From assembly GCA_001774495.1 (NCBI GenBank), contig MFAE01000014.1, forward strand, positions 10,573-74,572: a stretch of DNA of 64,000 nucleotides. The letters are read 5' to 3'. The translations under genes were made by a program, and so were the position numbers. The DNA is from Candidatus Campbellbacteria bacterium RIFOXYC2_FULL_35_25. Lineage in GTDB: Bacteria; Patescibacteriota; Minisyncoccia; Phycocordibacterales; UBA12079. The notes under the pieces were generated by a model. The model was not told the DNA's origin. It worked only from the letters and a program-made list of their open reading frames with translations, and did not search any database. This document shows positions 2,930-20,735 of this stretch, piece after piece; position 1 is the first letter of the stretch, and each line of letters opens with the position of its first letter.

Positions 2930-3227
2930 GTAGGTTCTATGGAAAGTAAGTTTATTTCCTCGTCCTTATTATGAGAGGAAGTTTTGAAAAAAGATTTCTT
3001 TTGAGAGACTGCACTCTCCTGAATAATTTGCTAAAGTGAGATTTCTCCTTTAAAAAATTTTTACGTTCTTGGCGGGTGAAAGGAAATACTTTTCTTTTTG
3101 TAGGCATAGAACCTCCTCGTAAGTTGAAAGGACCATTATTTTTCTAAATAAACAATAGCAAAGGTATGTTTAGTTTACAAGTTTTTAGGTAGCAAAAGCG
3201 CTAGAATTTTTATCCTTTTTGTATTAT

Positions 3228-3331
3228 AATTGCGAGCGAGGATAAATAAGAATAAATCTAAATTTATTCTTATTATATCCGAGCGAAGGAATTATATGCT
3301 TCGCATATAATTGCGAGCGAGGATAAATAAG
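3228..3331 (+). repeat. Two direct copies of the 25-nt motif ATAATTGCGAGCGAGGATAAATAAG, separated by small hairpins, just upstream of tRNA-Cys
   Basis: Exact 25-mer at 3228-3252 and 3307-3331; related TATAATTGCGAGC at 20744-20756; the CGAGCGAG/CTCGCT motif also occurs near the rplU start. Confidence 0.6.
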
Positions 3332-3436: not shown

Positions 3437-3518
3437 GCCTAGGTGGCGGAATTGGTATACGCGCACGACTTAAAATCGTGTCTCTCACGGGATGCGGGTT
3501 CGACTCCCGCCCTAGGCA
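3437..3518 (+). tRNA. tRNA-Leu (TAA)
   Basis: Acceptor GCCTAGG/CCTAGGC, anticodon loop CTTAAAA, long variable arm, T-arm GCGGGTTCGACTCCCGC. Confidence 0.85.
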
Positions 3519-3900
3519 CATTAGAAATACTAAATATAATTTATTAAAAATTATATTTAGTATTTCTAATTCGTAAGTTGAGGGAGTCGAACAGAACTTT
3601 TTAAAAGCAAATTTCTTTGCTTTTAAAAAGTCCGAGGCTTCGGAGGAAAAAATTTTGATGTCGTTTCACGACCAAAAATTTTTGGAGGAGAAGGACTCCC
3701 GCCCTAGGCACATTAGAAACATTGAATATATTTTTTGTGGGGTATATTCAATGTTTCTAATCCGTAGGTTGCGGGAGTCGAACAGAACTTTTTAAAAGCA
3801 AATTTTTTTGCTTTTAAAAAGTCCGAGGCTTCGGAGGAAAAAGTTTTCTTTATCGCTTTGCGATTGAAAACTTTTGAGGGAGAAGGACTCCCGCCCTAGG
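3519..3900 (+). repeat. Two tandem ~190-nt structured units (3519-3710 and 3711-3900). Each ends with a direct copy of the tRNA-Leu 3' end (GGACTCCCGCCCTAGG, followed by CA in the first unit).
   Basis: Each unit has a ~50-nt perfect palindrome (cattagaaatactaaatataatttattaaaaattatatttagtatttctaat), then tcgtaag, then gagggagtcgaacagaac (the reverse complement of the Leu T-arm), then small hairpins, then the tRNA 3' copy. Confidence 0.7.
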
Positions 3901-3914
3901 AAAATTAGAAATAT

Positions 3915-3987
3915 CCGTTCGTAGCTCAGTTGGTAGAGCAACCGGCTCTTAACCGGTAGGTCGAAGGTTCGAACCCTTCCGAGCGGA
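3915..3987 (+). tRNA. tRNA-Lys (CTT)
   Basis: Acceptor CCGTTCG/CGAGCGG with one G-U pair, anticodon loop CTCTTAA, T-arm GAAGGTTCGAACCCTTC. Confidence 0.85.
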
Positions 3988-4181
3988 CAAGTGAGCCCTT
4001 TTTGGGCGAGCGCGGAAGTTCGGAGAAAAGCAAACAATTTTGCTTTTCGTAAGGGTTCGAACGACGGAACATGTCGAGCAGAGCGAGACAGTGAGTCGCG
4101 TCCAGTAGTACTTAAATTTTTACGAGCGAAGCGAAGTAAAAAGTTTAGTAACTATGGGACGAACCCTTCCGAGCGGACAAG
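3988..4181 (+). repeat. ~190-nt tRNA-linked element ending with a direct copy of the tRNA-Lys 3' end (GGGACGAACCCTTCCGAGCGGACAAG at 4156-4181)
   Basis: Contains ttcgtaagGGTTCGAACgacggaacatg (reverse complement of the Lys T-arm) and a core related to the Trp- and Ala-linked elements. Confidence 0.65.
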
Positions 4182-4638: not shown

Positions 4639-4682
4639 GCAAAATAAAAGCCCCCTAAGGGGGCTTTTATTTTGCGGGTCCA
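4630..4682 (+). terminator. Perfect 25-bp inverted repeat with a 3-nt loop that incorporates the tRNA-Trp 3' acceptor strand; probable intrinsic terminator
   Basis: gtggacccgcaaaataaaagccccc taa gggggcttttattttgcgggtccac. Confidence 0.6.
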
Positions 4683-4692
4683 CAGCAAAGTG

Positions 4693-4870
4693 CCTGCGCA
4701 CTTTGCGTGAGGACTCGAACGGCGGAGACATGTTTTGCAAAGCAAAACAGTCGAGCCGCGTCCAGCGATACTTTGTAAATTTTGAGGTACGAAAAAATTT
4801 ACTTAGTAATCGCGGGACGAGTCCTCGTGAAAGTGCCTGCGCACTTTGCGTGAGGGCTCGAACGGCGGAG
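4693..4870 (+). repeat. tRNA-Trp-linked element. It ends with a direct copy of the T-loop/T-stem (GGGACGAGTCCTCGTG, 4814-4829) and is followed by a second partial copy of its 5' part (4830-4870).
   Basis: aaagtgcctgcgcacttt hairpin, then gcgtgaGGACTCGAACggcggagacatgttttgcaaagcaaaacagtcgagccgcgtccag; the hairpin plus gagggctcgaacggcggag is repeated at 4830-4870. Confidence 0.65.
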
Positions 4871-4940
4871 CAGTTTTGTGAATATAAAAAAGAGGTGTGC
4901 CCATCACGAGCACACCTCCTTGTTCTTAAACCCAGAGCCA

Positions 4941-5504
4941 TTAGTTTGGCCATGCTTCAATCAAAGCTTCGAGAATTCTTGCCATTTCCATACTGCCACC
5001 ACATTGCCCAGTGACGATTGCTTCGTCGACAAACCCATGTTTTTTGAGGTTCTGTAGACTCGGAAATTTATCCTTAAGGCCACAATCGCAAGTTAGCGTC
5101 GCGATGTAAGCATCCGGGAAGTCATCCCTTAAGGACTCGGTAAAATGAGTGGCTTCAGAAAAGCCAGACAGCCCGAGGTAAATCATGAAAAATAGGTTCT
5201 CGTGCAGGACAACTTCTGGATGTTCCCCGAGCAAACATTGTTCTACGTTTTGCTGGCAAATACTGGCCCTCATCTCCATTTGTGAAGGAGATGACCATTC
5301 CGAAACTCGTTCTCTGTGTCCATTTTCCGTTTCGCTCGCCGAGTAAACACTCAAACCTTGTTTCCCCGTGTCCACTTGGCCCCTATAACCCTGAATGCTG
5401 TTATAGGAGGTGAAGACGGCCGATAATTGACTTTTGCCTTTAATAATTTCTGGTATCTTCGCAATAAAATCTTCGGGTTTGATTAGCATCTCGGATTCCT
5501 CCAC
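4941..5504 (-). CDS. Hypothetical protein with visibly higher GC than its neighbours
   Basis: 187-aa ORF containing CDCG and GQCGGS motifs; a hairpin terminator at 4893-4920 lies downstream on the minus strand; no family recognised. Confidence 0.45.
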   Translation of the reverse strand: MEESEMLIKPEDFIAKIPEIIKGKSQLSAVFTSYNSIQGYRGQVDTGKQGLSVYSASETENGHRERVSEWSSPSQMEMRASICQQNVEQCLLGEHPEVVLHENLFFMIYLGLSGFSEATHFTESLRDDFPDAYIATLTCDCGLKDKFPSLQNLKKHGFVDEAIVTGQCGGSMEMARILEALIEAWPN

Positions 5505-12028: not shown

Positions 12029-12448
12029 ATGATGAAGAGAGTGTGGAGTATTTGTTTGCTTATTGGGTTGATGTTGTGGTGTTCTACATCCACGGCTTCA
12101 ACCCTGACCCCCGCAGTTTCAGGTCTTTCATTTCACCAGGGTGAAACAGGAGACTTTGAATGGGAAATTTTAAAAAAAGGAGGGAAGGAACACAAGAGCG
12201 AATCAGTTCGCTTTGAGGACAAAAAAAATGAACGGGAGGGGTCTTTTTGGATGACGGGGGGGCATTATGGCGTCGACGATTTTAAAAAAGAAAAAATTCG
12301 TTTTGATAAAAAAGGAAAAGGTCATCACTACGGACGGGGAAAGAATCCCCCTCGTTGTGAAGTCCCTGCACCCTCGAGTATTCTTTTGCTCACCGCCGGC
12401 TTGGTTGGTCTAGCCAGTTTTGGGGCAATCTTAAAAAAGAAGGCGTAA
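12029..12448 (+). CDS. Small secreted protein with a PEP-CTERM-like C-terminal sorting signal (VPAPSS variant), in a GC-rich patch
   Basis: N-terminal signal peptide; C-terminus VPAPSSILLLTAGLVGLASFGAILKKKA. Confidence 0.5.
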   Translation: MMKRVWSICLLIGLMLWCSTSTASTLTPAVSGLSFHQGETGDFEWEILKKGGKEHKSESVRFEDKKNEREGSFWMTGGHYGVDDFKKEKIRFDKKGKGHHYGRGKNPPRCEVPAPSSILLLTAGLVGLASFGAILKKKA

Positions 12449-12633
12449 TTTTTTATGCACGCCTTCGCGCAATAACCTTGTCGTCTCTTTGTGAGATGAC
12501 GAGGTTATTTTTTTATTTGAAATCTATTGACAGACAGGCAATAAGAGTGTAAGTTTATAGAGAAATTTTGCAGTTCTTCGAAGTTTAGAGGGGGGCGTTT
12601 TGCCTAAAATTAAGAACACAAGGAGAGAACAGA

Positions 12634-13307
12634 TGCAACAAACGAAGAGGGTAAGTATGGCCGATTTTCTTGCCGGGATGGTTGGTAACGACGAATCGTT
12701 CATTTTTGGGGTACCCCGTGAGACGATGGCAAGGGAAAGCCCTAAAGATCGTCTTCTGCGAAAAGCAGTGACCGACGGAGAGGCTGCCAAACCGATTGAC
12801 CTCCTTTCTGTCCATGCGGAAACCGTTTCGGCCCTTGCCGCGGCCGACTATTTCCAGGAGCTCTTGGATCTGTCACTCGCGACGAGTGAAGATCTTCGAA
12901 ACAAACTCGAGGTGATGACTCATATCAAGAATGTTCAGGAGAAAAGGGCGAACTCTTTATTCAAAAGGCTGAAGGGGCTCTCTGAGGAAGAGCCTCTCAA
13001 GCAGGCGGTAGTCACGCGGATGAAGAGCCGGATAGCATCTCTGGAGGAGATCACAAACGCCCTTGCCGAGGAAAACGAGCTTCTTATGGAAGCTCTCGAC
13101 ACAATCTCTGCACTCATTGCCTCTCCTCCCAAGTGTTCCCCTCCGGCGAAGAAGGATCGGGTACCTTTAATCAAGCGGATTAAGGAAATCTCGGATGCCT
13201 TTGGTAGTTCCTTCATTCCGTTGGATCAGGCTCCTAAGCCAGGCTGGGTGGAACCGGAAAAAGATTGGCCTCGGTTGCCCATCGACAAACCGAAGTCCGA
13301 GTGTTAG
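12634..13307 (+). CDS. Hypothetical protein, GC-rich with atypical codon usage
   Basis: SD aaggagag 6 nt before the ATG at 12634; GC-rich stem-loop terminator at 13340-13385. Confidence 0.45.
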
Positions 13308-13587: not shown

Positions 13588-13593
13588 CACAAC

Positions 13594-13632
13594 CAAAATA
13601 AAACACCATTTTTTTAGATGGTGTTTTATTTT
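13594..13632 (+). terminator. Palindromic rho-independent terminator after tRNA-Ala
   Basis: aaaataaaacaccat ttttttag atggtgttttatttt. Confidence 0.7.
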
Positions 13633-13639
13633 GTGTTGC

Positions 13640-13850
13640 TGTGCCAGAAGAAAGCAAACTGCTTTGCTTTCGTGAGGAATCGAAAGGCGGAATCATGTTT
13701 TGCGAAGCAAAACAGACGAGCCGGGGTCGCGAGCACTTAATAGATTTCGAGCCGAAGACGAAGAAATATATTTAGTGACTCGTGACCGATTCCTCTCTGG
13801 TCCATATTTTTACTTAGAACTGGGGACCGATTCCTCTCTGGTCCACCAAA
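13640..13850 (+). repeat. tRNA-Ala-linked element with two direct copies of the tRNA-Ala 3' end (GACCGATTCCTCTCTGGTCCA at 13784-13804 and 13825-13845)
   Basis: ctttcgtgaGGAATCGAAaggcggaatcatgttttgcgaagcaaaacagacgagccggggtcgcgagcactt; the core is homologous to the Trp-linked element. Confidence 0.65.
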
Positions 13851-14399
13851 ATCTAGACCCAAAAGCGACAGCTTTCGGGCCTAGATTTTGGTGGAATATT
13901 CTAGACTTTGCGCGAAATTATTTTGAGAACGAATGAAGCTTACGCTCCGATTTCTTCTAAACTTTAAACCGCCTGCTACGCCCCACTAAAGCGGAAGTTT
14001 CGGCGAAACGACTTGTCGCCTCCGTAAACTCTGGCGACAACCAACACCAAAAAAATTCTTTTCCTTTTCTCTCTAGGGTCTGTTCAAGATTTCACCGCAA
14101 ACATATATTATTTACTACTCTAAAGAGTAGAGTTTGCTTGTCGGCTAAAACTTCATAATTTTGGCTACAAATTTTTAAAATTTCGTCAGTATATCTTGAT
14201 ATACTTCTTCAATTTTTAAAATTTTCGCACAAAATTCTGAAGTTTTATCTCGACATGAAATCTTGAACAAACTCTTGAAATTTGGGGGGGGCGAAAAAAG
14301 AAAGGAAAAAACGCAAAGAAATTTTTTTGGGTTGGTTTCGAACTTATAGGCAGTATCTTAATACTTTAAGATGCTGCCCGCTTCTAGCCATTTTTTGTT

Positions 14400-14427
14400 C
14401 CAACGGCTCAACGACTTGAGCCGTTGG
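14400..14427. repeat. Copy 1 of the palindromic motif CAACGGCTCAACGA(C/G)TTGAGCCGTTG; further copies at 18387-18410 and 20755-20780
   Basis: Three near-identical 11-12 bp stem palindromes in intergenic positions: copy 1 ahead of the first island gene, copy 2 inside the island, copy 3 after the last. Confidence 0.7.
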
Positions 14428-14496
14428 TTTATCGACATACCGTTATATTATAATATAACATTGTGGTATACTATAACAAGCGATATACTGTTGATA

Positions 14497-14703
14497 ATGA
14501 ATGGTGAATCTGAAAAACTTGGTAAAAATTTAAATAAAATTAGAACAAGTAAAAAAATATCGCAAGGTGATATTGCTCGCTCGTTAGGAGTTAGCCGTGG
14601 TTTTATTAGTAACATAGAAAATGGTAAAACTAACCCTACACTTGCAACGATTAGTAAAATAGCAAAAGCTGTTGGTGTTTCTACTGACGAATTATTAAAA
14701 TAA
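14497..14703 (+). CDS. XRE-family HTH regulator, resembling a restriction-modification controller (C) protein
   Basis: ~68 aa; LGKNLNKIRTSKKISQGDIARSLGVSRGFISNIENGKTNPTLATISKIAKAVGVS. Confidence 0.65.
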   Translation: MNGESEKLGKNLNKIRTSKKISQGDIARSLGVSRGFISNIENGKTNPTLATISKIAKAVGVSTDELLK

Positions 14704-14705
14704 TT

Positions 14706-15776
14706 ATGAGTAAAGAAAAAACAAGTTCAAATAGTAACCTACATAAAGCTAATAGGGCAAAAAAAGACGAGTTTTATACTCAGCTTATTGATATTGAAAA
14801 GGAGTTAAAACACTACAAAGAACAATTTCGTGACAAGGTAGTATATTGTAACTGCGATGACCCCTTTGAAAGTAATTTTTTCAAATATTTTGCCTCAAAC
14901 TTTAATGTTCTGGGCTTAAAAAAACTCATTGCCACCAGTTACAAACCATCCCCAATTGCTAATACTCAATTAGGATTATTTGGTGATGACAAAAAACTCT
15001 CAAAATCAAAAGGTCGCCCAAAAACAACAGCTAATAAATTTATCATCAACGAAGCTAGTGATTTTGATGGTGATGGTGCATTTGACCTTCATGATATAGC
15101 AGAACAACTAAAGGCTAATAAAAATAATGAGTGGGCTCCTCTTAAAGGTGATGGGGATTTTAAAAGCCCAGAAAGTATAGAACTTTTAAAACAAGCAGAT
15201 ATTGTCGTAACTAATCCACCTTTTTCATTATTTAGGGAATATGTTGCTCAATTAGTTGAGTATGATAAAAAATTTTTAATATTAGGTCAGCAGGGAGCGG
15301 TGATCTATAAAGAATTTATTCCTCTAATCAAAGAAAATAAAGTTTGGCTCGGACATGATAATGGTGGAACAAAATGGTTTCAAGTTCCTATGGATTATGA
15401 CATCCCAACAGAATCAAGAAAAAAAAATGTTGACGGTGTAAAATATTTCAGCATGGGAAGTGTTAATTGGTATACAAATCTCGAAGTTGCTCGTCGCCAC
15501 AATGATCTTGTATTATATAAAAAATATAATCCTAAGGAATATTTTAAATATGATAATTATGATGGAATTAACGTAAATAGATATATCGATATCCCAATGG
15601 ATTATGAAGGAGTAATGGGTGTACCAATTACTTTTCTTAACTACCATAACCCTGATCAGTTTGAGATTATAGGATTAGATAGGTACACGGGAAAGAATGG
15701 AGATAAAGATTTTACTATTAACGGGAAAATGTTGTTTCGTCGTATATTAATTAAAAATAAAAGACCACAAAAATAA
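14706..15776 (+). CDS. N6-adenine (amino-class) DNA methyltransferase
   Basis: DEFYTQ (motif X-like), VYCNCDDPFESNFF (motif I-like), IVVTNPPFS (motif IV, NPPF). Confidence 0.65.
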   Translation: MSKEKTSSNSNLHKANRAKKDEFYTQLIDIEKELKHYKEQFRDKVVYCNCDDPFESNFFKYFASNFNVLGLKKLIATSYKPSPIANTQLGLFGDDKKLSKSKGRPKTTANKFIINEASDFDGDGAFDLHDIAEQLKANKNNEWAPLKGDGDFKSPESIELLKQADIVVTNPPFSLFREYVAQLVEYDKKFLILGQQGAVIYKEFIPLIKENKVWLGHDNGGTKWFQVPMDYDIPTESRKKNVDGVKYFSMGSVNWYTNLEVARRHNDLVLYKKYNPKEYFKYDNYDGINVNRYIDIPMDYEGVMGVPITFLNYHNPDQFEIIGLDRYTGKNGDKDFTINGKMLFRRILIKNKRPQK

Positions 15777-15780
15777 TGAT

Positions 15781-16884
15781 ATGATAATAAATTTACATAA
15801 GATTAAAATCTCTGAGATTGTAAAGGATTATAAGGACAGCGATGAAGAAGGGGTGTCTGCTTTTGGTGGTAAATTAGATATTCGTCCTAAGTATCAAAGA
15901 GAGTTTGTATATAGTGGTAAACAAAGAGATGAAGTGATCAGAACTGTCAAAAATGGTTTTCCTTTAAATGTTATGTATTGGGTGAAAAAAGAAGACAAAA
16001 ATTTTGAAGTACTTGATGGACAACAAAGGACAATTAGTATCGCCCAATTTGTAAATGGAGATTTTTCAATTGAATTTAACGGAAGAATCGCAATGTTTCA
16101 TAATCTAACTAAAGAAGAACAAGAGCAGATTATGAATTATGATCTTATGATTTATCACTGTGAAGGAACCGATAAGGAAAAGCTCGACTGGTTTAAGATT
16201 ATTAATATTGCTGGTGAGAAATTGTTTCCTCAAGAGCTACGAAATGCTGTGTATACTGGCCCATGGCTTTCAGATGCAAAGCTGAAGTTTAGTAAATCAA
16301 ATTGTGCGTCTTATTTGTTAGCAAATGACGGTGGTCAATTAATAACAGGTTCTCCTATAAGACAAGAGTATCTAGAAACTGCATTATCATGGATAAACAA
16401 TGATGAAATAGAACAATATATGGCACAACATCAACATGACAAAGATGCAGATGAGTTGTGGCAGTATTTTCAAAATGTAATCCATTGGGTACGGAAAACT
16501 TTTCCTCATTATAGAAAAGAGATGTCAGGCGTAAATTGGGGCGAACTCTATAACGCATTTAAAAACAAAAAACTTAATCCAGAAAAATTAGAGAAAGAAA
16601 TTAAAAGATTGATGCAAGATGAAGACGTCACAAAAAAATCTGGGATCTATTCATATATATTAACTCTCAAGGAGCGATACCTTTCTATACGGGCATTCAC
16701 ACCAAATATGAAACGTGAAGCATATGAAAGACAAAATGGTGTTTGCCCTGAATGTAATAAAGATTTTTCACTTTCAGAAATGGAAACGGATCATATTGAT
16801 CCGTGGCATGAAGGTGGAAGAACAATAGCAGAAAATTGCCAGATGTTATGCAAAGAATGTAATAGACGAAAATCTGGAAAATAA
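15781..16884 (+). CDS. DUF262 (ParB-like, DGQQR) plus C-terminal HNH nuclease fusion; GmrSD-like restriction-type nuclease
   Basis: LDGQQRT motif; C-terminus CPECN..HIDPWHEGGRT..NCQMLCKECNRRK. Confidence 0.65.
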   Translation: MIINLHKIKISEIVKDYKDSDEEGVSAFGGKLDIRPKYQREFVYSGKQRDEVIRTVKNGFPLNVMYWVKKEDKNFEVLDGQQRTISIAQFVNGDFSIEFNGRIAMFHNLTKEEQEQIMNYDLMIYHCEGTDKEKLDWFKIINIAGEKLFPQELRNAVYTGPWLSDAKLKFSKSNCASYLLANDGGQLITGSPIRQEYLETALSWINNDEIEQYMAQHQHDKDADELWQYFQNVIHWVRKTFPHYRKEMSGVNWGELYNAFKNKKLNPEKLEKEIKRLMQDEDVTKKSGIYSYILTLKERYLSIRAFTPNMKREAYERQNGVCPECNKDFSLSEMETDHIDPWHEGGRTIAENCQMLCKECNRRKSGK

Positions 16885-16888
16885 AATT

Positions 16889-17998
16889 ATGAAAAAAATC
16901 GAAGTAAAAATCACAGAAAAAGATAAGGGTACAAAAGACCTGTCCTTGCTTAACCTACGCGATGAAGTTGTTAATTTTCTATATAAAGATACCGTTGCTA
17001 ATTCAACAAAAACAGACATGCAATTCTTCGTTTTGCTTTTCTTTGCGTCTATTCAAGTTGAACAAAAGACCTTTTTGGAAAAAATTTTAGAAGACGGTGT
17101 GCCGAAATTCAAAAAGCTAAATGCAGTATTTTCAAACAGAAAAGGATATTTACATGCAGGAGAGTATAAAAAGATGGTTGACGAACATGGGCTTACTGAG
17201 TTGTTTAAAAACGATATTTTCTTTGTAATTATTGAAGCCGTTTTAAATATTGACGAAATAAAAAGTCGTTTCTCTGAGCTTTTTGAAAAACATAAAAAAT
17301 TAGGAGATTCCATAATTTCAATCGGAGAAAAATATTCAAGAGATTTAGAAGAAAGTTTCAAAGATTTCCAGACCTCAAGAATTCAGGACGATAGATACGA
17401 TGAGCACGGAAATTATCATGATTTAAGCAAAAGCGTATATAGGACTGTTAGGATGCGAAATTCTAGGAACCTTGATTTAAATCTTCAGCGATATACCTCA
17501 ATAAAGAAGATTACCAGTGAATCGCCAGTTGATTTAACCTTTCTTCAACATATTGATCCACAAATCATTTTTGATTTGTGGGATAAGTATCAAGTTGCTG
17601 AATACATGAAGTCAATGTGGAGTACAGCAAATAATAGCCCGATAATCGCTAATACAGTTGGGGGTATTTTTGGTGGATTGGTTGTGCTGTATGCTCAATG
17701 GAAACTTATCGACGGAAGAAAAAATAGAACAGAAAAAAAGAAAGCGAAGCAAAAATTCGAAAAATCAAAAACAGAGAACGGACATATTCTTGATGATCTT
17801 ACACTTAGGCTTGTTGATTCTGTGTTAAAGGCAAACGAAAGATTAGAAAAAGAGGTTGAGGTAAATAGAACAAAAGTTCGAGAACTTTCGAGTGAAAATC
17901 TCCTGATTCAAGATAAAGATAAAATAAAAAAGCTTGAAGAGCGAATTGCTCAACTTGAAAACTTATCTGTACAAGCAAAAGTTATTGACTATAAGTAG
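16889..17998 (+). CDS. Hypothetical protein with a C-terminal coiled coil
   Basis: 369-aa ORF tightly packed after the nuclease gene. Confidence 0.4.
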   Translation: MKKIEVKITEKDKGTKDLSLLNLRDEVVNFLYKDTVANSTKTDMQFFVLLFFASIQVEQKTFLEKILEDGVPKFKKLNAVFSNRKGYLHAGEYKKMVDEHGLTELFKNDIFFVIIEAVLNIDEIKSRFSELFEKHKKLGDSIISIGEKYSRDLEESFKDFQTSRIQDDRYDEHGNYHDLSKSVYRTVRMRNSRNLDLNLQRYTSIKKITSESPVDLTFLQHIDPQIIFDLWDKYQVAEYMKSMWSTANNSPIIANTVGGIFGGLVVLYAQWKLIDGRKNRTEKKKAKQKFEKSKTENGHILDDLTLRLVDSVLKANERLEKEVEVNRTKVRELSSENLLIQDKDKIKKLEERIAQLENLSVQAKVIDYK

Positions 17999-18081
17999 AT
18001 GATAGGGAGCCACGCTTGCGCGCTTATGAGCAGGTGAGGCAATCACAATATGATTTGTTTATGGTGTGTTAAAATAAACTT

Positions 18082-18372
18082 ATGAATTTTATACTTTTAA
18101 TAATAGTTGCAATAGCAGGAATAATTATCGGAAGTTATTTTGGTGTGAAAAAAGATGGTTTGATTTTTGGGCAAACGAAGAAAAAGAAAGAAAACAAGGA
18201 AAGAATATTGAAATTTTTGGAAACTAATGAAAAAGTGACAAATAATGATATTGAGAAATTATTAGGAGTATCTGATGCAACTGCAACAAGGTATCTAAAT
18301 GAATTAGAAAAAGAGCAAAAAATCAAACAAATCGGCACGGTCGGTCATGCCGTATATTATCGCTTAATGTAG
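18082..18372 (+). CDS. Small membrane-anchored protein with a C-terminal winged-HTH tail
   Basis: N-terminal TM helix; C-terminus ATATRYLNELEKEQKIKQIGTVGHAVYYRL. Confidence 0.45.
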   Translation: MNFILLIIVAIAGIIIGSYFGVKKDGLIFGQTKKKKENKERILKFLETNEKVTNNDIEKLLGVSDATATRYLNELEKEQKIKQIGTVGHAVYYRLM

Positions 18373-18408
18373 CCACGAAGTGGCTGAACGGCTCAACGAG
18401 TTGAGCCG

Positions 18409-20061
18409 TTGAAAAGATTTATGAAAGACAAAGAATATTATTCAAATTTTGAAAACCAGCGTGATGAACACACTCAGAATATTTTAGGTTCGGAAAGCAA
18501 AAATAAAATTATTCTTGCTGGACCAGGAACTGGAAAAAGTTATTTATTTCAACAAATATGTAAAAACAATATTGAAAATGATCTTAACAACAATTTGACT
18601 CTATCTTTTATCAACGAATTAGTTAATGATTTATCAAAAGATTTACACGGACTTTCTGATGTAAAAACATTACACAGTTTTGCCTTAAAAAACATCTCTA
18701 AAAATACTAATTTTTTTATGAATTTAGGTGATGTAATTCAAGAAGATTATAAAATTATAAAAAATAAAGAAGTTAGTTTTAAAGATATATTTTATAACCT
18801 TGAGGAAGAAAAAGAAGACGAATTAAATTTTTATTCAGAAAGGAGAAAATTTTATAATTTCTTTGGTCCAAACTGTTCTATATATACATTAATAAAAATA
18901 TTTGAAAATAATGAAGAAAAAATTCCAAAATATTCTCAAATTTTAATAGATGAATTTCAAGACTTTAATAAATTAGAAAGCCGCCTGATAGACTTATTGG
19001 CAGAAAAAAACTCAATGGTCATTGCTGGGGACGATGACCAATCATTATATTCTTTCAAAAATGCAAATCCTCAAGAAATAAGAGACAAACACAAATCAGA
19101 AGAATATACATCTTTTGAGTTACCTTTTTGTTCAAGATGTCCTGAAGTTATAATAAATTCTTTTCATAATATAGTCGACAAAGCTAAGGCAGAAGGTTTT
19201 TTGAAAGATAGAATTTCAAAAGAATACAAGTATTTTCCTTCAGTAGAAAAAGACCTACTATCATCGCAAAACCCTAAACTCATAATAAATAAAGGGGTAT
19301 ATCAAAACCAAATTGCTTTTAACATTGAAAAAGAAATAAAAAGCATATCTGATTCAGGAAAAAAAGATTTTTCTGTTTTAGTAATATGTTCTTTAAAATC
19401 ACAAATAAAAAGCTTAGAGAAAGCTTTGCGTAAAAAAGGCTTTAATAATATTGAATCACCTCAAGAAAAGAAAGGAGGTGATTTAATTGACGGGCTAAAA
19501 TTGTTACAAAAAGATAAAGAATGTAATTTAGGGTGGAGAATTGTCTCAAAAATAATTTTAGAAAATAATAATAAAGATATTAAAGATATTATTAAAAAAA
19601 GCCACTCTAATTTAAATAAAAAATTTTATGAATTATTAGATAAAAATGATGTTAAATATATAAAACAAGTACTCGCAATATTTAAAAAAGTTAATGAAAA
19701 TAAATCATTAAAAAAAGAAGAGTATCAAAAAATTTTAGATTGTTTCGGTTATAATCAAGAAAATATTGTGTTAGAAAAATTAAAAGAAGATTTTCAAGAT
19801 AACAATAATCAAAAAACAAATTACAAGAATATACCTATAAAAATAACAACCATTCTCGGCTCAAAAGGGCTGACCAATGATTATGTCTTTCTTGTCAATT
19901 TTGATGATGGATATCTTTTTGGAAAAGAGAAAAAAATAACTGATGAAAATATTTGTAAATTTTTAGTTGCGTTAACAAGAGCAAAGAAAAAAATCTATCT
20001 TTATGCAAACAACAACAAGTTACCTACTTTTGTAAATTGGATTGATAAAAATAATTATTAA
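18409..20061 (+). CDS. Superfamily 1 (UvrD/PcrA-like) helicase, short form
   Basis: Walker A AGPGTGKS, motif II ILIDEFQDF, C-terminal ILGSKGL...VALTRAKKKIYLY. Confidence 0.6.
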   Translation: MKRFMKDKEYYSNFENQRDEHTQNILGSESKNKIILAGPGTGKSYLFQQICKNNIENDLNNNLTLSFINELVNDLSKDLHGLSDVKTLHSFALKNISKNTNFFMNLGDVIQEDYKIIKNKEVSFKDIFYNLEEEKEDELNFYSERRKFYNFFGPNCSIYTLIKIFENNEEKIPKYSQILIDEFQDFNKLESRLIDLLAEKNSMVIAGDDDQSLYSFKNANPQEIRDKHKSEEYTSFELPFCSRCPEVIINSFHNIVDKAKAEGFLKDRISKEYKYFPSVEKDLLSSQNPKLIINKGVYQNQIAFNIEKEIKSISDSGKKDFSVLVICSLKSQIKSLEKALRKKGFNNIESPQEKKGGDLIDGLKLLQKDKECNLGWRIVSKIILENNNKDIKDIIKKSHSNLNKKFYELLDKNDVKYIKQVLAIFKKVNENKSLKKEEYQKILDCFGYNQENIVLEKLKEDFQDNNNQKTNYKNIPIKITTILGSKGLTNDYVFLVNFDDGYLFGKEKKITDENICKFLVALTRAKKKIYLYANNNKLPTFVNWIDKNNY

Positions 20062-20063
20062 AA

Positions 20064-20735
20064 ATGCCACCAGAAGAAAATCAAAAAAATACAGTTGAAG
20101 AAATTCCTGTTTCGGCTCCGCCGAAACAGGAAGTCGTTGAAAATGTTCCCGTTGTTGAAGAAACCCCTGCTCCAATTGAAACTCTTGTGGAAGAACAAAC
20201 TGAAAATATTGAAAATATTGAAAATGTTGAAACTGAAGTCGTTGAGCCAATAATAATTGAGTCTGTAACAGAAACGCCGATTATTGAAACGACTGAACCG
20301 ATAGAACAAATAGAAAACGAAGAAACTGGATTGCTTCACTTTGTTCGCAAAGACGAAGCTGTTGAAGAAATTCCACAAGTTGAAGAAGTGAAACAGTCTC
20401 AATCTGTTCAACAAGAACAACCTCAACCGCAGTCAGAACCTCAACCACAACAAACTCAAACTGTTGAAAAAATTATTTATCAAACTCCGCCTAATTTGAT
20501 TCAAAATCTCTTAACCAAAGCGAGAGCAAAAATTCAAGAAAGGAAAAATAAGAAGTTGAATAAAATAATGTCACTTTTTGAATCAAATTCAAATATTTCT
20601 AACTCGGATGTTCAAAAATTGCTACGAACTACTAAAAGAAGTGCAACAAGATATTTAAATATTCTTGAAAAAGAGCAAAAGATAATTCAAGTTGGAAATG
20701 CTGGCAGAGGTGTAAAATACATCAAAAAACCTTAA
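20064..20735 (+). CDS. Acidic low-complexity protein (ENIENIENVETEVVEP, QPQPQSEPQPQQ) carrying the same winged-HTH tail as the 18082 gene
   Basis: C-terminus SATRYLNILEKEQKIIQVGNAGRGVKYI. Confidence 0.45.
   Translation: MPPEENQKNTVEEIPVSAPPKQEVVENVPVVEETPAPIETLVEEQTENIENIENVETEVVEPIIIESVTETPIIETTEPIEQIENEETGLLHFVRKDEAVEEIPQVEEVKQSQSVQQEQPQPQSEPQPQQTQTVEKIIYQTPPNLIQNLLTKARAKIQERKNKKLNKIMSLFESNSNISNSDVQKLLRTTKRSATRYLNILEKEQKIIQVGNAGRGVKYIKKP

Follow-up and report, generated by a model that had tools for sequence, protein, structure and literature searches.

Organization of the tRNA-Leu locus

Two tandem structured units lie directly downstream of the tRNA-Leu(taa) gene in the window, the whole 64,000-nucleotide stretch of DNA that was analysed, and are followed by tRNA-Lys (Table 1). 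The tandem arrangement, first recognized from the letters alone, is real: a repeat finder gives a repeat period of 191-192 nt and a 105-nt stretch repeated between the two units with 92% identity. As had been claimed, both units end with a copy of the tRNA-Leu 3' end, since GACTCCCGCCCTAGG is present three times, at 3502, 3694 and 3886; the template of these copies is nt 57-76 of tRNA-Leu(taa), GACTCCCGCCCTAGGCA. It is also agreed that the units are too small to encode anything. The folding energy of unit 1 is -68 kcal/mol, compared with -34.4 +/- 3.6 for shuffled sequences (z = -9.35).

Several details of the sequence-only reading apply to one unit more closely than to the other. The opening palindrome, described as perfect and about 50 nt long, is found as such in unit 1 (23-nt arms, 100% complementary, 5-nt loop) and is shorter in unit 2 (19-nt arms, 100% complementary, 12-nt loop), and the TCGTAAG motif that was said to follow it is exact in unit 1 and reads CCGTAGG in unit 2. 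The inverted copy of the T-arm is a 13-nt perfect reverse complement of tRNA nt 53-65 in unit 2 (GCGGGAGTCGAAC) and carries one mismatch in unit 1 (GAGGG...). The third hairpin is present and is longer than first noted (AAAAATTTTG...CAAAAATTTTT), with compensatory changes distinguishing unit 1 from unit 2; likewise, three positions differ between the palindrome (hp1) arms of the two units and every one is compensated by the opposite arm. Unit 2 does not abut tRNA-Lys as had been stated; the two are separated by 14 nt (AAAATTAGAAATAT), which are still similar to the start of hp1. Contigs from different ENA/JGI samples (L001, L003, L010 and L012) cover both units with 100% identity, and this agreement of at least four independent assemblies excludes an assembly artefact.

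Further units are found in the window behind tRNA-Lys, tRNA-Trp and tRNA-Ala (Table 1), and related units follow both tRNA-Leu(tag) and tRNA-Ser, just upstream of the window. The second, truncated tRNA-Trp unit ends where a GC-richer segment starts that holds a minus-strand ORF of 187 aa. A restriction-modification/defence island adjoins the tRNA-Ala unit. A small ORF in the type-A core was considered and rejected, as it is not conserved and the same frame in the tRNA-Lys unit stops early.

Table 1. Coordinates of the tRNA genes, the units and their parts in the window.
Feature	Positions	Strand	Description and evidence
tRNA-Leu(taa)	3437-3519	+	ARAGORN; Rfam tRNA 62.3 bits
Unit 1	3520-3711		
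Unit 1 hp1	3520-3570	+	palindrome, 23-bp perfect arms; repeat finder, fold
Unit 1 a'	3580-3592	+	GAGGGAGTCGAAC; inverted tRNA nt 53-65, one mismatch; P1 5' strand
Unit 1 core	3592-3693	+	type B; P2 3592-3634 (CAGA/TCCG + hairpin), P3 3638-3693 (CTTC/GAAG + purine-rich internal loop + hairpin); RNAalifold (20 family members), pair counts, CM (93.3 bits with CM R1)
Unit 1 a	3694-3711	+	GACTCCCGCCCTAGGCAC; direct copy of tRNA nt 57 to 3' end; P1 3' strand
Unit 2	3712-3900		
Unit 2 hp1	3712-3761	+	palindrome, 19-bp perfect arms; repeat finder
Unit 2 a'	3771-3783	+	GCGGGAGTCGAAC; inverted tRNA nt 53-65, perfect
Unit 2 core	3783-3885	+	type B; P2 3783-3825, P3 3829-3885; CM 103.1 bits
Unit 2 a	3886-3900	+	GACTCCCGCCCTAGG; direct repeat, third copy 71% over 41 nt
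tRNA-Lys	3915-3988		ARAGORN, Rfam
Lys unit	3989-4179	+	type A, after tRNA-Lys(ctt); direct and inverted repeats
Lys unit parts	4023-4049, 4051-4062, 4063-4160, 4161-4179	+	hp2, a' (AAGGGTTCGAAC), core, a
Trp unit	4641-4829	+	type A, after tRNA-Trp
Trp unit, 5' part	4641-4673, 4674-4683, 4684-4707	+	terminator-like hp1, inverted acceptor copy, hp2
Trp unit, 3' part	4708-4720, 4721-4818, 4819-4829	+	a', core, a
Second Trp unit	4830-4875	+	truncated: hp2, a', then GGCGGAGCAG
Ala unit	13589-13804	+	type-A-like, after tRNA-Ala
Ala unit parts	13590-13638, 13647-13672, 13673-13685, 13686-13787, 13788-13804	+	hp1, hp2, a', core, a
Remnant of further unit after Ala unit	13805-13846	+	tail TTAGAACTGGGGACC, then second tRNA-Ala 3'-end copy 13829-13846

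A family of units in tRNA 3' flanks

Two core types, A and B, are recognized, and the Leu units belong to type B. In genomes and metagenomes of Patescibacteria, cores of these types are found behind about 20 different tRNAs. The Leu units belong to a family of small non-coding elements that is Patescibacteria-wide and resides in tRNA 3' flanks, a spread over many tRNAs that the sequence-only reading had missed. This family of folded elements of about 190 bases is large and apparently without earlier description: a full-text literature search returned no description of tRNA-trailing modules and only two related reports (PMC13011429; PMC12045711). The genome scan yielded about 90 stretches, almost all from Patescibacteria MAGs, and approximately 58 of 83 hits sit 165-215 nt downstream of a tRNA on the same strand, with about 20 anticodons represented and a 3'-end copy of up to 21 nt directly after the core. 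In metagenomes, the scan for type B recovered about 20 true hits, located behind nine tRNA species.

Among 146 tRNAs at the fetched loci, downstream copies of at least 10 nt were found in direct orientation for 71 and in inverted orientation for 79, compared with two and two in the upstream control. The inverted copy precedes the direct copy in 46 of 50 cases, with a median spacing of 119 nt. Several of the fetched contigs break at tRNA clusters. The orientation of a unit is always that of its tRNA, a terminator-like hairpin separates the tRNA from the core in many members, and at least two or three distinct core types are built on one common plan. Some tRNAs are also flanked by analogous modules on the 5' side with copies of tRNA nt 1-19, as expected if conserved tRNA loops are the insertion points.

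Copies of the neighbouring tRNA within the unit

Each unit comprises a palindrome, a segment a', a conserved core (two hairpins, about 100 nt) and a segment a. Segment a' is an exact inverted copy of the T-loop and the 3' strand of the T-stem (the complement of tRNA nt 53-65), and a directly repeats the neighbouring tRNA, starting at nt 57 and ending at the 3' terminus. Core and copy meet at T-loop position 56/57. Pairing of a' with a produces helix P1, which belongs to a three-way junction, and within this junction the core's 3' end is stacked directly on nt 57. A fit of a' to its own tRNA at eight or more of nine positions was seen in 38 of 70 units, compared with 3.5% for other tRNAs, and both a' and a track the T-loop differences among orthologous tRNA-Leu genes. 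Cores next to different tRNAs in one genome are 84-96% identical, and this identity ends exactly at GAAC and GGG(A/T)C, with hp1, a' and a differing.

The acceptor part of the copy often decays while P1 is retained, and the direct copy sometimes extends into the palindrome that follows. Inverted tRNA-end copies without a core are present at tRNA-Trp of L114 and at tRNA-Cys of L032; an apparent variant tRNA-Cys 3' end in L013 was set aside, this contig having 2x coverage and being probably chimeric. Where the tRNA has a non-Watson-Crick acceptor pair, the downstream 7-mer equals the exact complement of the 3' strand in six of six cases and the tRNA 5' strand in none. A tRNA-like or aminoacylatable mimic that keeps identity pairs such as G3.U70 was rejected on this ground. 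No CCA follows the tRNA copy, and the inverted copy carries no complement of CCA, which removes the analogy to a primer-binding site.

Fold and covariation

A consensus fold was computed with RNAalifold from 20 family members. The proportion of paired cells is 96.1%, compared with 79.1% in shuffles and 38-54% in slid controls, and double changes occur in 18 pairs of the fold. The stems of type A contain 45 G.U and four A.C combinations, and for 53 of 55 type-A cores and 19 of 21 type-B cores the better fold is that of the tRNA-sense strand. The units therefore display a conserved predicted secondary structure with compensatory changes on a single strand, as a structured RNA would. The hairpins of units 1 and 2 survived six double compensatory changes after their duplication, a pattern equally compatible with selection for a host function and with the needs of the element itself.

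In Rfam 15, only tRNAs pass in the window and seven further loci; the other hits there fall far below the gathering score and are hairpin look-alikes, with no credible match to ribozymes, group I or II introns, IS605 and HEARO RNAs, tmRNA or YrlA. Bulge-helix-bulge intron, hammerhead and HDV-like topologies were compared by eye and rejected, the junction strands and pairings being unfit.

Occupancy and turnover in relatives

The number of units at orthologous tRNA-Leu(taa) loci varies between 0, 1 and 2, in agreement with the variability anticipated for this comparison: none is present in L114/L116 and L120, one in L122, L136, L154 and L156, and two in the window. The closest relative of each Leu unit in the window is the other one: units 1 and 2 have AGAAC and the P2 hairpin in common, unlike all orthologues. 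Tandem duplication via the flanking direct repeats therefore explains unit 2 better than repeated integration does, and it looks like an in-place duplicate of unit 1. Orthologous sites also show truncated and decaying copies and one nested insertion (in P2). Patchy presence, clean empty sites, broken copies and the nested insertion together indicate that the unit is dispensable, and the occurrence of the tRNA-Leu(taa) unit in five related genomes points to largely vertical inheritance. Recombination between direct repeats can by itself account for presence, absence and tandem copies, and the high core identity within a genome can reflect gene conversion instead of movement. Mobility of the units is something that we infer and have not seen; no enzyme, autonomous copy, circular form or fresh insertion of a unit was found.

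Search for proteins and viruses associated with the units

At about 110 loci, the 2.5 kb around the units contain no recurrent recombinase ORF. No integrase was found near the units at about 130 or more loci, and the 20 window ORFs tested include no integrase, transposase or reverse transcriptase. Neither near the units nor among these window ORFs was an IntI-like ORF found, nor was TnpA or TnpB, and the Rfam match to IS605-orfB is insignificant (E = 0.76). The sole rve-like ORF (L156) is located upstream of L21, distant from the units. Clustering of 397 neighbouring ORFs revealed housekeeping synteny only, with no linked protein partner; the top cluster, a YraN-like nuclease, is merely a companion of tRNA-Pro. 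Three scans of IMG/VR gave chance matches in coding sequence only: the type-A core pattern had none, the type-B pattern one and a shorter type-A motif six. A viral or phage origin was rejected.

Comparison with known systems

The T-loop is the sublocation of one class of tRNA integration sites, and integrase-less remnants of elements in tRNA genes are known as CIMEs. The units resemble tRNA-integrating elements and CIMEs in the direct repeat from the T-loop to the 3' end, the intact tRNA, the tandem arrays and the variable occupancy, and direct repeats of a tRNA 3' segment flank the insert, as in a CIME. They differ in that no integrase was found nearby, one core family occurs behind about 20 tRNAs, the target copy is exactly inverted, the core forms an RNA-like three-way junction whose covariation is strand-biased, and the copies share the core and not attP-derived arms. 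Assignment as a MITE was rejected, since the inverted repeats a'/a are tRNA-specific and the direct repeat is variable in length (12-21 nt or longer).

Integron attC sites and the attP(+) hairpin of CTX phage, the latter used by XerCD, are recombination sites formed by a folded single strand. In the units, too, two inverted segments separated by about 100 nt pair within a single strand, the paired duplex has the sequence of the double-stranded target, the pairing arms conserve structure over sequence, and arrays occur. Unlike in these sites, the intervening core is strongly conserved in sequence and the target is a tRNA T-loop, and no IntI or dedicated Xer was identified; on inspection, the attC motifs R''/R' (RYYYAAC/GTTRRRY) are not matched by TTCGAAC and GTTCGAN.

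With PATEs, REP-RAYT elements and the omega-RNA of TnpB the units have in common a length of about 100-200 nt, a hairpin near each end and the lack of terminal inverted repeats of their own. Action on one strand recalls IS200/IS605 systems, and the target-derived sequence of 16-20 nt directly after the scaffold recalls the guide of an omega-RNA. Here, however, the target-derived 3' sequence pairs with an internal complement, the observed flanks are not produced by simple insertion, and TnpA and TnpB were not found.

Group I introns are common in the tRNAs of Patescibacteria, at position 35/36 (PMC13011429), and the units thus share a host clade rich in tRNA introns. Like the internal guide of a group I intron (P10 and P1), a' together with GAAC is complementary to the uninterrupted target on both sides of the insertion point (4 nt on the 5' side and at least 9 nt on the 3' side). 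In contrast to these introns, the core is far too small and lacks a group I fold (no match to RF00028), the upstream tRNA is intact and needs no splicing, and type A is without a terminal G. TIGR-Tas occurs in CPR bacteria (PMC12045711), and Patescibacteria are accordingly known hosts of RNA-guided systems of this kind. The bridge and seek RNAs of IS110 and the TIGR-Tas RNAs are likewise non-coding two-stem molecules of about 100-180 nt with segments that match both target strands. The target-matching segments of the units, however, lie outside the stems and are mutually complementary, the internal loops do not vary, the units have no linked DEDD/Ser recombinase or Nop-domain protein, and TIGR units are 36 nt long.

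Discussion

We favour the interpretation that each unit is a non-autonomous element that homes to tRNA T-loops and is not a classical integrase scar, with a probability of roughly 40%. The unit would be a protein-less genetic element whose target is the universally conserved T-loop of tRNA genes, and it would supply or regenerate a replacement tRNA 3' end together with a palindrome or terminator, leaving the tRNA intact. It would be recognized by a trans-acting factor as a folded tRNA-sense single strand, most likely RNA, with a' acting as an internal guide to, or complement of, the target. The direct repeats of a resident unit would then permit tandem duplication (unit 2) and precise loss (the empty sites in relatives), and cores could spread among the tRNA loci of one genome by gene conversion or movement. 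Rewriting of a' for a new tRNA by template-switch correction of the a'/a quasi-palindrome is pure conjecture.

A host RNA function is a serious rival, although on balance we consider it somewhat unlikely. The unit would in this case be an immobile, cis-acting part of the tRNA transcription unit that serves the tRNA or the cell, for example in definition or protection of the 3' end, insulation of the downstream gene or binding of a protein that processes tRNA; the role of the a'/a helix would be to mimic or sequester the 3' strand of the tRNA, changes in copy number would be recombination accidents, and gene conversion would homogenize the cores. Such a role is consistent with the deep conservation of the core between Patescibacteria classes, both in sequence and in a covarying fold biased to the tRNA-sense strand, with the invariable orientation, with the vertical inheritance of the Leu(taa) unit in several genomes, with the compensatory changes that preserved the hairpins after the duplication, with the retention of P1 despite acceptor decay and with the lack of a linked mobility gene. 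Dispensability, as judged from the patchy distribution in close relatives, the empty sites, the broken copies and the nested insertion in P2, argues against it, as do the two or three (at least) core types on one plan and the terminator-like hairpin that precedes the core in many members, and it leaves unexplained both the direct copy that reaches the very 3' end of the tRNA, and sometimes the palindrome, and the 5'-end copies upstream of other tRNAs. Insertion of the core as a PATE- or REP-like element, cut and pasted as ssDNA by an HUH (Y1) transposase of the IS200/IS605 type, appears improbable. The core of about 100 nt would have entered 3' of GAAC, the complement of the T-loop GTTC, in pre-existing inverted tRNA-end copies belonging to extended terminator palindromes. 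Similar short motifs do bound the core (GAAC| ... GGAC|, GGTC| or GAAG|), which folds strand-specifically into two imperfect hairpins and lacks conserved terminal inverted repeats, and the core-less copies in L114 and L032 could represent the postulated sites. To the right of the core, however, one always finds the direct copy a and not the continuation of the inverted tRNA, so that simple insertion fails; GAAC is inseparable from the universal T-loop sequence, and neither TnpA nor TnpB nor a significant Rfam match was found.

Repeated integration into the tRNA 3' end by a tyrosine or serine recombinase, which the sequence-only reading had put forward and which would leave attL/attR (CIME-like) remnants, is highly improbable. 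It accounts for the succession of tRNA and 3'-end copy, for direct repeats from the T-loop to the 3' end like those of T-loop-class integrases, and for tandem arrays and a variable number of units, and the defence island next to the tRNA-Ala unit would suit it. Nonetheless, no integrase was detected near the units or among the tested window ORFs, the IMG/VR matches are chance ones, and unit 2 is more likely a tandem duplicate. One core at about 20 tRNAs would require about 20 integrase specificities; within a genome only this core of about 100 nt is shared, and not whole attP arms, G.U-tolerant RNA-type covariation with strand bias is unexpected for double-stranded protein-binding arms, and the exact inverted copy a' has no role. 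A purely local origin, with the tRNA 3' end and its terminator duplicated in tandem and neither a specific element nor a function involved, is hardly credible, and so is an assembly artefact. Tandem duplication of unit 1 is the simplest origin of unit 2, but the sequence recurs in the independent assemblies, and a conserved, covarying core behind about 20 tRNAs in many genomes refutes this as a full explanation.

A more elaborate form of the T-loop-homing interpretation, a homing element of a new kind, is in our judgement rather unlikely as a whole. A three-way-junction RNA or ssDNA of about 100 nt would guide itself by pairing a' across T-loop position 56/57 of any tRNA gene, insert there and supply the 3' end, and would be retargeted by copying the target into both arms; the system would be programmable, free of protein genes and confined to Patescibacteria, and the mirror modules at the D-loop would behave alike.

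If the units are what they seem, about half of the examined tRNA genes in many ultra-small Patescibacteria genomes bear an unannotated, conserved and folded element that is partly written in the sequence of its own tRNA. The units would constitute a widespread new class of bacterial non-coding elements and would account for the frequent assembly breaks at tRNA clusters. Targeting based on base pairing would be readable directly in the genome sequence, and the family could reveal homing to tRNA genes without a linked recombinase or, alternatively, a new level in the handling of tRNA transcripts by organisms whose RNA-processing machinery is minimal.

Tandem units downstream of tRNA-Leu(taa)

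Two tandem folded units, each ending in a copy of the 3′ end of tRNA-Leu(taa), lie between this gene and tRNA-Lys(ctt). A repeat finder returned a period of 191-192 nt in this interval, with 92% identity over 105 repeated nucleotides, which confirms the arrangement proposed in a sequence-only reading; GACTCCCGCCCTAGG occurs at 3502, within tRNA-Leu, and again at 3694 and 3886. Each unit comprises, in order, a palindrome (hp1), a 13-nt inverted copy of tRNA nucleotides 53-65 (arm a′; one mismatch in unit 1, none in unit 2), further hairpins and a direct tRNA copy from G57 to the 3′ end (arm a). The palindromes were described as perfect and ~50 nt long; the arms are indeed perfect in both units (23 bp in unit 1 and 19 bp in unit 2), the second palindrome being shorter than claimed. 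The TCGTAAG motif is exact in unit 1 and not in unit 2, the third hairpin is present and longer than was seen earlier, and unit 2, said to abut tRNA-Lys, is separated from it by 14 nt. The predicted fold of unit 1 is much more stable than those of shuffled sequences (z = −9.35). Both units are spanned at 100% identity by contigs L001, L003, L010 and L012 from different ENA and JGI samples, which refutes an assembly artefact.

Many independent assemblies of the organism (contig ends of L009, L002, L011 and L014-L017) stop inside or beside the tRNA-unit cluster, as expected if short-read assemblers are confused by repeated units. Within the T-stem of tRNA-Cys, the low-coverage contig L013 parts from the window and runs into unrelated sequence with repeats ATCGTATATCG; this may be due to chimeric assembly or to true variation.

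Coordinates of the units and neighbouring features (L numbers denote loci from other genomes or assemblies)
Feature	Sequence	Position	Remark
tRNA-Leu(taa)	window	3437-3519	
Unit 1	window	3520-3711	
Unit 2	window	3712-3900	
tRNA-Lys(ctt)	window	3915-3988	
Unit after tRNA-Lys	window	3989-4179	
Unit after tRNA-Trp	window	4641-4829	second, truncated unit follows
Unit after tRNA-Ala	window	13589-13804	remnant of a further unit follows
Repeat pair upstream of tRNA-Cys	window	3225-3331	
GC-richer segment	window	4876-5504	terminator-like hairpin at 4889-4921
DNA upstream of tRNA-Ala	window	12029-13307	
Low-GC island	window	14371-20735	
5′-side modules	L120	6637-6869	
5′-side modules	L154	3308-3467	
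5′-side modules	L001	4908-5210	minus strand
Insertion in P2 loop	L154	2935-3110	
Coreless palindrome	L114	4680-4745	
Divergent sequence	L013	4085-4854	

A family of modules in tRNA 3′ flanks

The units belong to a family of modules placed in the 3′ flank of Patescibacteria tRNA genes. Other ~190-nt units in the window follow tRNA-Lys, tRNA-Trp and tRNA-Ala, and just upstream of it on the same contig tRNA-Leu(tag) and tRNA-Ser(gga) are also followed by units; tRNA-Cys, 16 nt ahead of tRNA-Leu, is the only one without. Every unit contains the T-loop-to-3′-end segment of its own tRNA as an inverted and a direct copy. The Lys, Trp and Ala units share a type A core (AAC GRCGGAR ... GAGCCGCGTCCAGCAGTACTTA ... 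TTAGTAACTGCGGGAC) and the Leu(taa) units have a type B core (AAC RGAAC ... GTCCGNGGCTTCGGAGGA ... GGAGAAG); neither type is matched by any Rfam 15 family, and no description of the modules was found in the full-text literature searched. A scan of one genome per prokaryotic species gave ~90 stretches with the type A pattern, nearly all in Patescibacteria MAGs. About 58 of 83 matches sit 165-215 nt 3′ of a same-strand tRNA; they represent ~20 anticodons, and the core is immediately followed by as much as 21 nt of the 3′ end of that tRNA. The type B pattern yielded ~20 true members in a JGI metagenome scan, after tRNA-Gly, Pro, Thr, Glu, Arg, Leu, Ser, Trp and Met. Some 'orphan' units follow tRNAs missed by ARAGORN; such tRNAs are probably interrupted by the group I introns reported from Patescibacteria (PMC13011429).

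Copies of at least 10 nt from the last 21 nt of a tRNA were counted within 350 nt downstream of the evaluable tRNAs in the fetched loci. Direct copies follow 71 of 146 tRNAs and inverted copies 79 of 146, fractions biased upwards because the loci were chosen for having at least one unit; the upstream control gave two of each. The inverted copy precedes the direct one in 46 of 50 cases, at a median spacing of 119 nt.

Folding of the core and origin of the closing helix

Both core types form a conserved three-way junction. In type B, for which 20 members were aligned, the two window units among them, a′ and a pair as P1; P2 has an invariant CGGA/TCCG base, a bulged A and a covarying hairpin; and P3 consists of an invariant CTTC/GAAG base and a covarying hairpin, with a purine-rich internal loop between them. 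Standard pairs fill 96.1% of type B cells, compared with 79.1% after shuffling and 38-54% with partners slid, and 18 of 29 pairs have changed on both sides. Type A (55 sequences) follows the same plan, with CGGC/GCCG and tandem G.A-type mismatches in P2 and GTCC-A-GCAGT/ACTGC-G-GGAC in P3, where pairs covary (e.g. U-A to A-U, A-U to G-C). Two further elements separate hp1 from a′ in many type A members: an inverted acceptor 3′-strand copy and hp2, a small conserved hairpin. The sense strand outfolds the antisense strand in 53 of 55 type A and 19 of 21 type B cores and, together with the excess of G.U over A.C in type A stems (45 versus 4), points to a single-stranded form of tRNA sense, for which RNA would be the natural candidate and top-strand DNA the alternative.

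The closing helix is an exact inverted and direct copy of the adjoining tRNA, with the boundary at T-loop position 56/57; in type B no nucleotide separates the P3 3′ strand from tRNA-copy nucleotide 57. In 38 of 70 units, compared with 3.5% for other tRNAs, a′ agrees with the complement of nucleotides 57-65 of its own tRNA at no fewer than 8 of the 9 positions; the 38 are an undercount because the motif finder mis-set some boundaries. The T-loops of orthologous tRNA-Leu(taa) genes differ (GACT in the window, GACC in L136, GATC in L154), and both arms mirror these differences, except that a′ of L154 lags, retaining a G opposite T59 that still pairs as G.U. At tRNAs whose acceptor stem contains a wobble or mismatch, the inverted 7-mer downstream matches the complement of the 3′ strand exactly in six of six cases and in none the tRNA's own 5′ strand, so that the arm is a true inverted copy; a tRNA mimic keeping identity pairs is thereby ruled out. 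CCA is not encoded. Coreless forms occur in L114 and, after tRNA-Cys, in L032; in both, the terminator hairpin extends to a perfect palindrome including at least the last 13 nt of the tRNA; in L032 the inverted copy reaches back to about nucleotide 40, with hp2 inserted at the acceptor/T-stem boundary.

Loss, duplication and variable copy number

The modules are dispensable and variable in copy number. Among orthologous loci, obtained via ribosomal protein L21 homologues, tRNA-Leu(taa) is followed by no unit in L114/L116 (next tRNA 30 nt away) and L120, by one in L122, L136, L154 and L156 (conserved motifs decaying in L156) and by two in the window, indicating that the Leu unit is old in the Campbellbacteria-like clade and has since been lost and duplicated. 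Inserted in the P2 loop of the single L154 unit is a ~200-nt sequence bounded by long terminal inverted repeats (AGAGCCTATCAAAAGTTTCG...CGAAACTTTTGATAGGCTCT), which looks like a separate nested MITE. Complete copies of the Trp unit occur in the window and in L120 and a truncated one in L122; in L114 the unit has shrunk to a palindrome including the tRNA end. Units 1 and 2 share AGAAC and an AT-rich P2 seen in no orthologue and are thus sisters formed in place. Overall identity between them is 82%; 55 of the 67 predicted pairs are unchanged, six altered on both sides, three altered on one side and still pairing, and three broken, and 16 of 59 unpaired columns differ.

Cores at different tRNAs of one genome can be 84-96% identical (Pro/Asn, Asn/Val, Leu/Ala), the identity starting exactly at GAAC and stopping at GGG(A/T)C, with hp1, a′ and a unrelated. 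Mean core identity is 0.64 for different tRNAs within one genome; between genomes it is 0.53, and 0.55 when the tRNA is the same.

Neighbouring genes and 5′-side modules

No recurrent recombinase or transposase was found within 2.5 kb of the units at ~110 loci, and no integrase, transposase or reverse transcriptase among 20 window ORFs tested. The single recurrent ORF encodes a YraN-like (PD-(D/E)XK) nuclease that is merely syntenic with tRNA-Pro; this homologue, conserved beside tRNA-Pro(tgg) in many Patescibacteria (L090, L046, L036, L135, L038, L068, L077, L080 and L134), carries variable low-complexity insertions (NVSCGT/NVIRET repeats). Three viral scans yielded no true member: the type A core pattern had no match, and the type B pattern and a shorter type A motif had one and six, all by chance in coding sequence.

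In relatives, tRNA-Lys and tRNA-Ser have modules on their 5′ side with copies of tRNA nucleotides 1-19, which suggests that both conserved tRNA loops serve as entry points. There are one or two per tRNA, of ~120-140 nt each, opening with the first ~18-19 nt of the tRNA, as far as the D-loop GG, and then forming a small hairpin flanked by A/T; those at tRNA-Lys share GGTGGAAGARTATTCCTTTGAA...TAAGAGTCGGATGC, and they look like the counterpart of the 3′ units. Two copies of the 26-nt TATAATTGCGAGCGAGGATAAATAAG, spaced 81 nt apart and separated by small palindromes, are present upstream of tRNA-Cys; the GAGCGAAG/GCGAGG motif also recurs in unit hairpin loops and 5′ modules. A GC-richer segment truncates the second tRNA-Trp unit; it has a strong terminator-like hairpin and a 187-aa minus-strand ORF that has no Pfam family and is missing from the Campbellbacteria relative L120. 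Apparently foreign DNA lies on both sides of tRNA-Ala and its unit: upstream, two ORFs of ~45% GC without Pfam match; downstream, a low-GC island with an XRE regulator, an EcoRI-type adenine methylase, a GmrSD-HNH nuclease and a UvrD-like helicase, and no integrase.

Discussion

We infer, with a probability of roughly 0.4, that the modules are non-autonomous elements homing to the universal T-loop. Such an element would restore the tRNA with its own copy, together with a palindrome or terminator, and a trans-acting factor would handle it in folded single-stranded form. Over 4 nt 5′ of the insertion point and at least 9 nt 3′ of it, a′ is the complement of the uninterrupted target; the arm would act as an internal guide, the junction setting the 3′ end of the core against nucleotide 57. 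Unequal exchange through the direct repeats would explain unit 2, and deletion through them the clean empty sites; as a conjecture, template-switch correction of the a′/a quasi-palindrome would match a′ to a new tRNA.

The main rival, a host cis-acting RNA of the tRNA operon, would account for the deep conservation, vertical inheritance and compensatory evolution following duplication, but it does not predict two conserved tRNA loops as entry points, and the copies are patchy, decaying and interrupted; we consider it rather unlikely. The repeated site-specific integration into the tRNA 3′ end proposed at first sight is partly supported: it agrees with the variable unit number and the tRNA 3′-end copies, but no recurrent recombinase was found within 2.5 kb of the units at ~110 loci and no integrase among 20 window ORFs tested. 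Classical integrase scars and an IS200/IS605-like PATE each explain part of the anatomy. The scars fail specific tests, and for the PATE the flank to the right of the core is at odds with simple insertion; we consider the PATE improbable and the scars slightly more so. Overall, the modules are best classed among tRNA-targeting non-autonomous elements, as a novel variant, and there is a genuine possibility that they are something more unusual.
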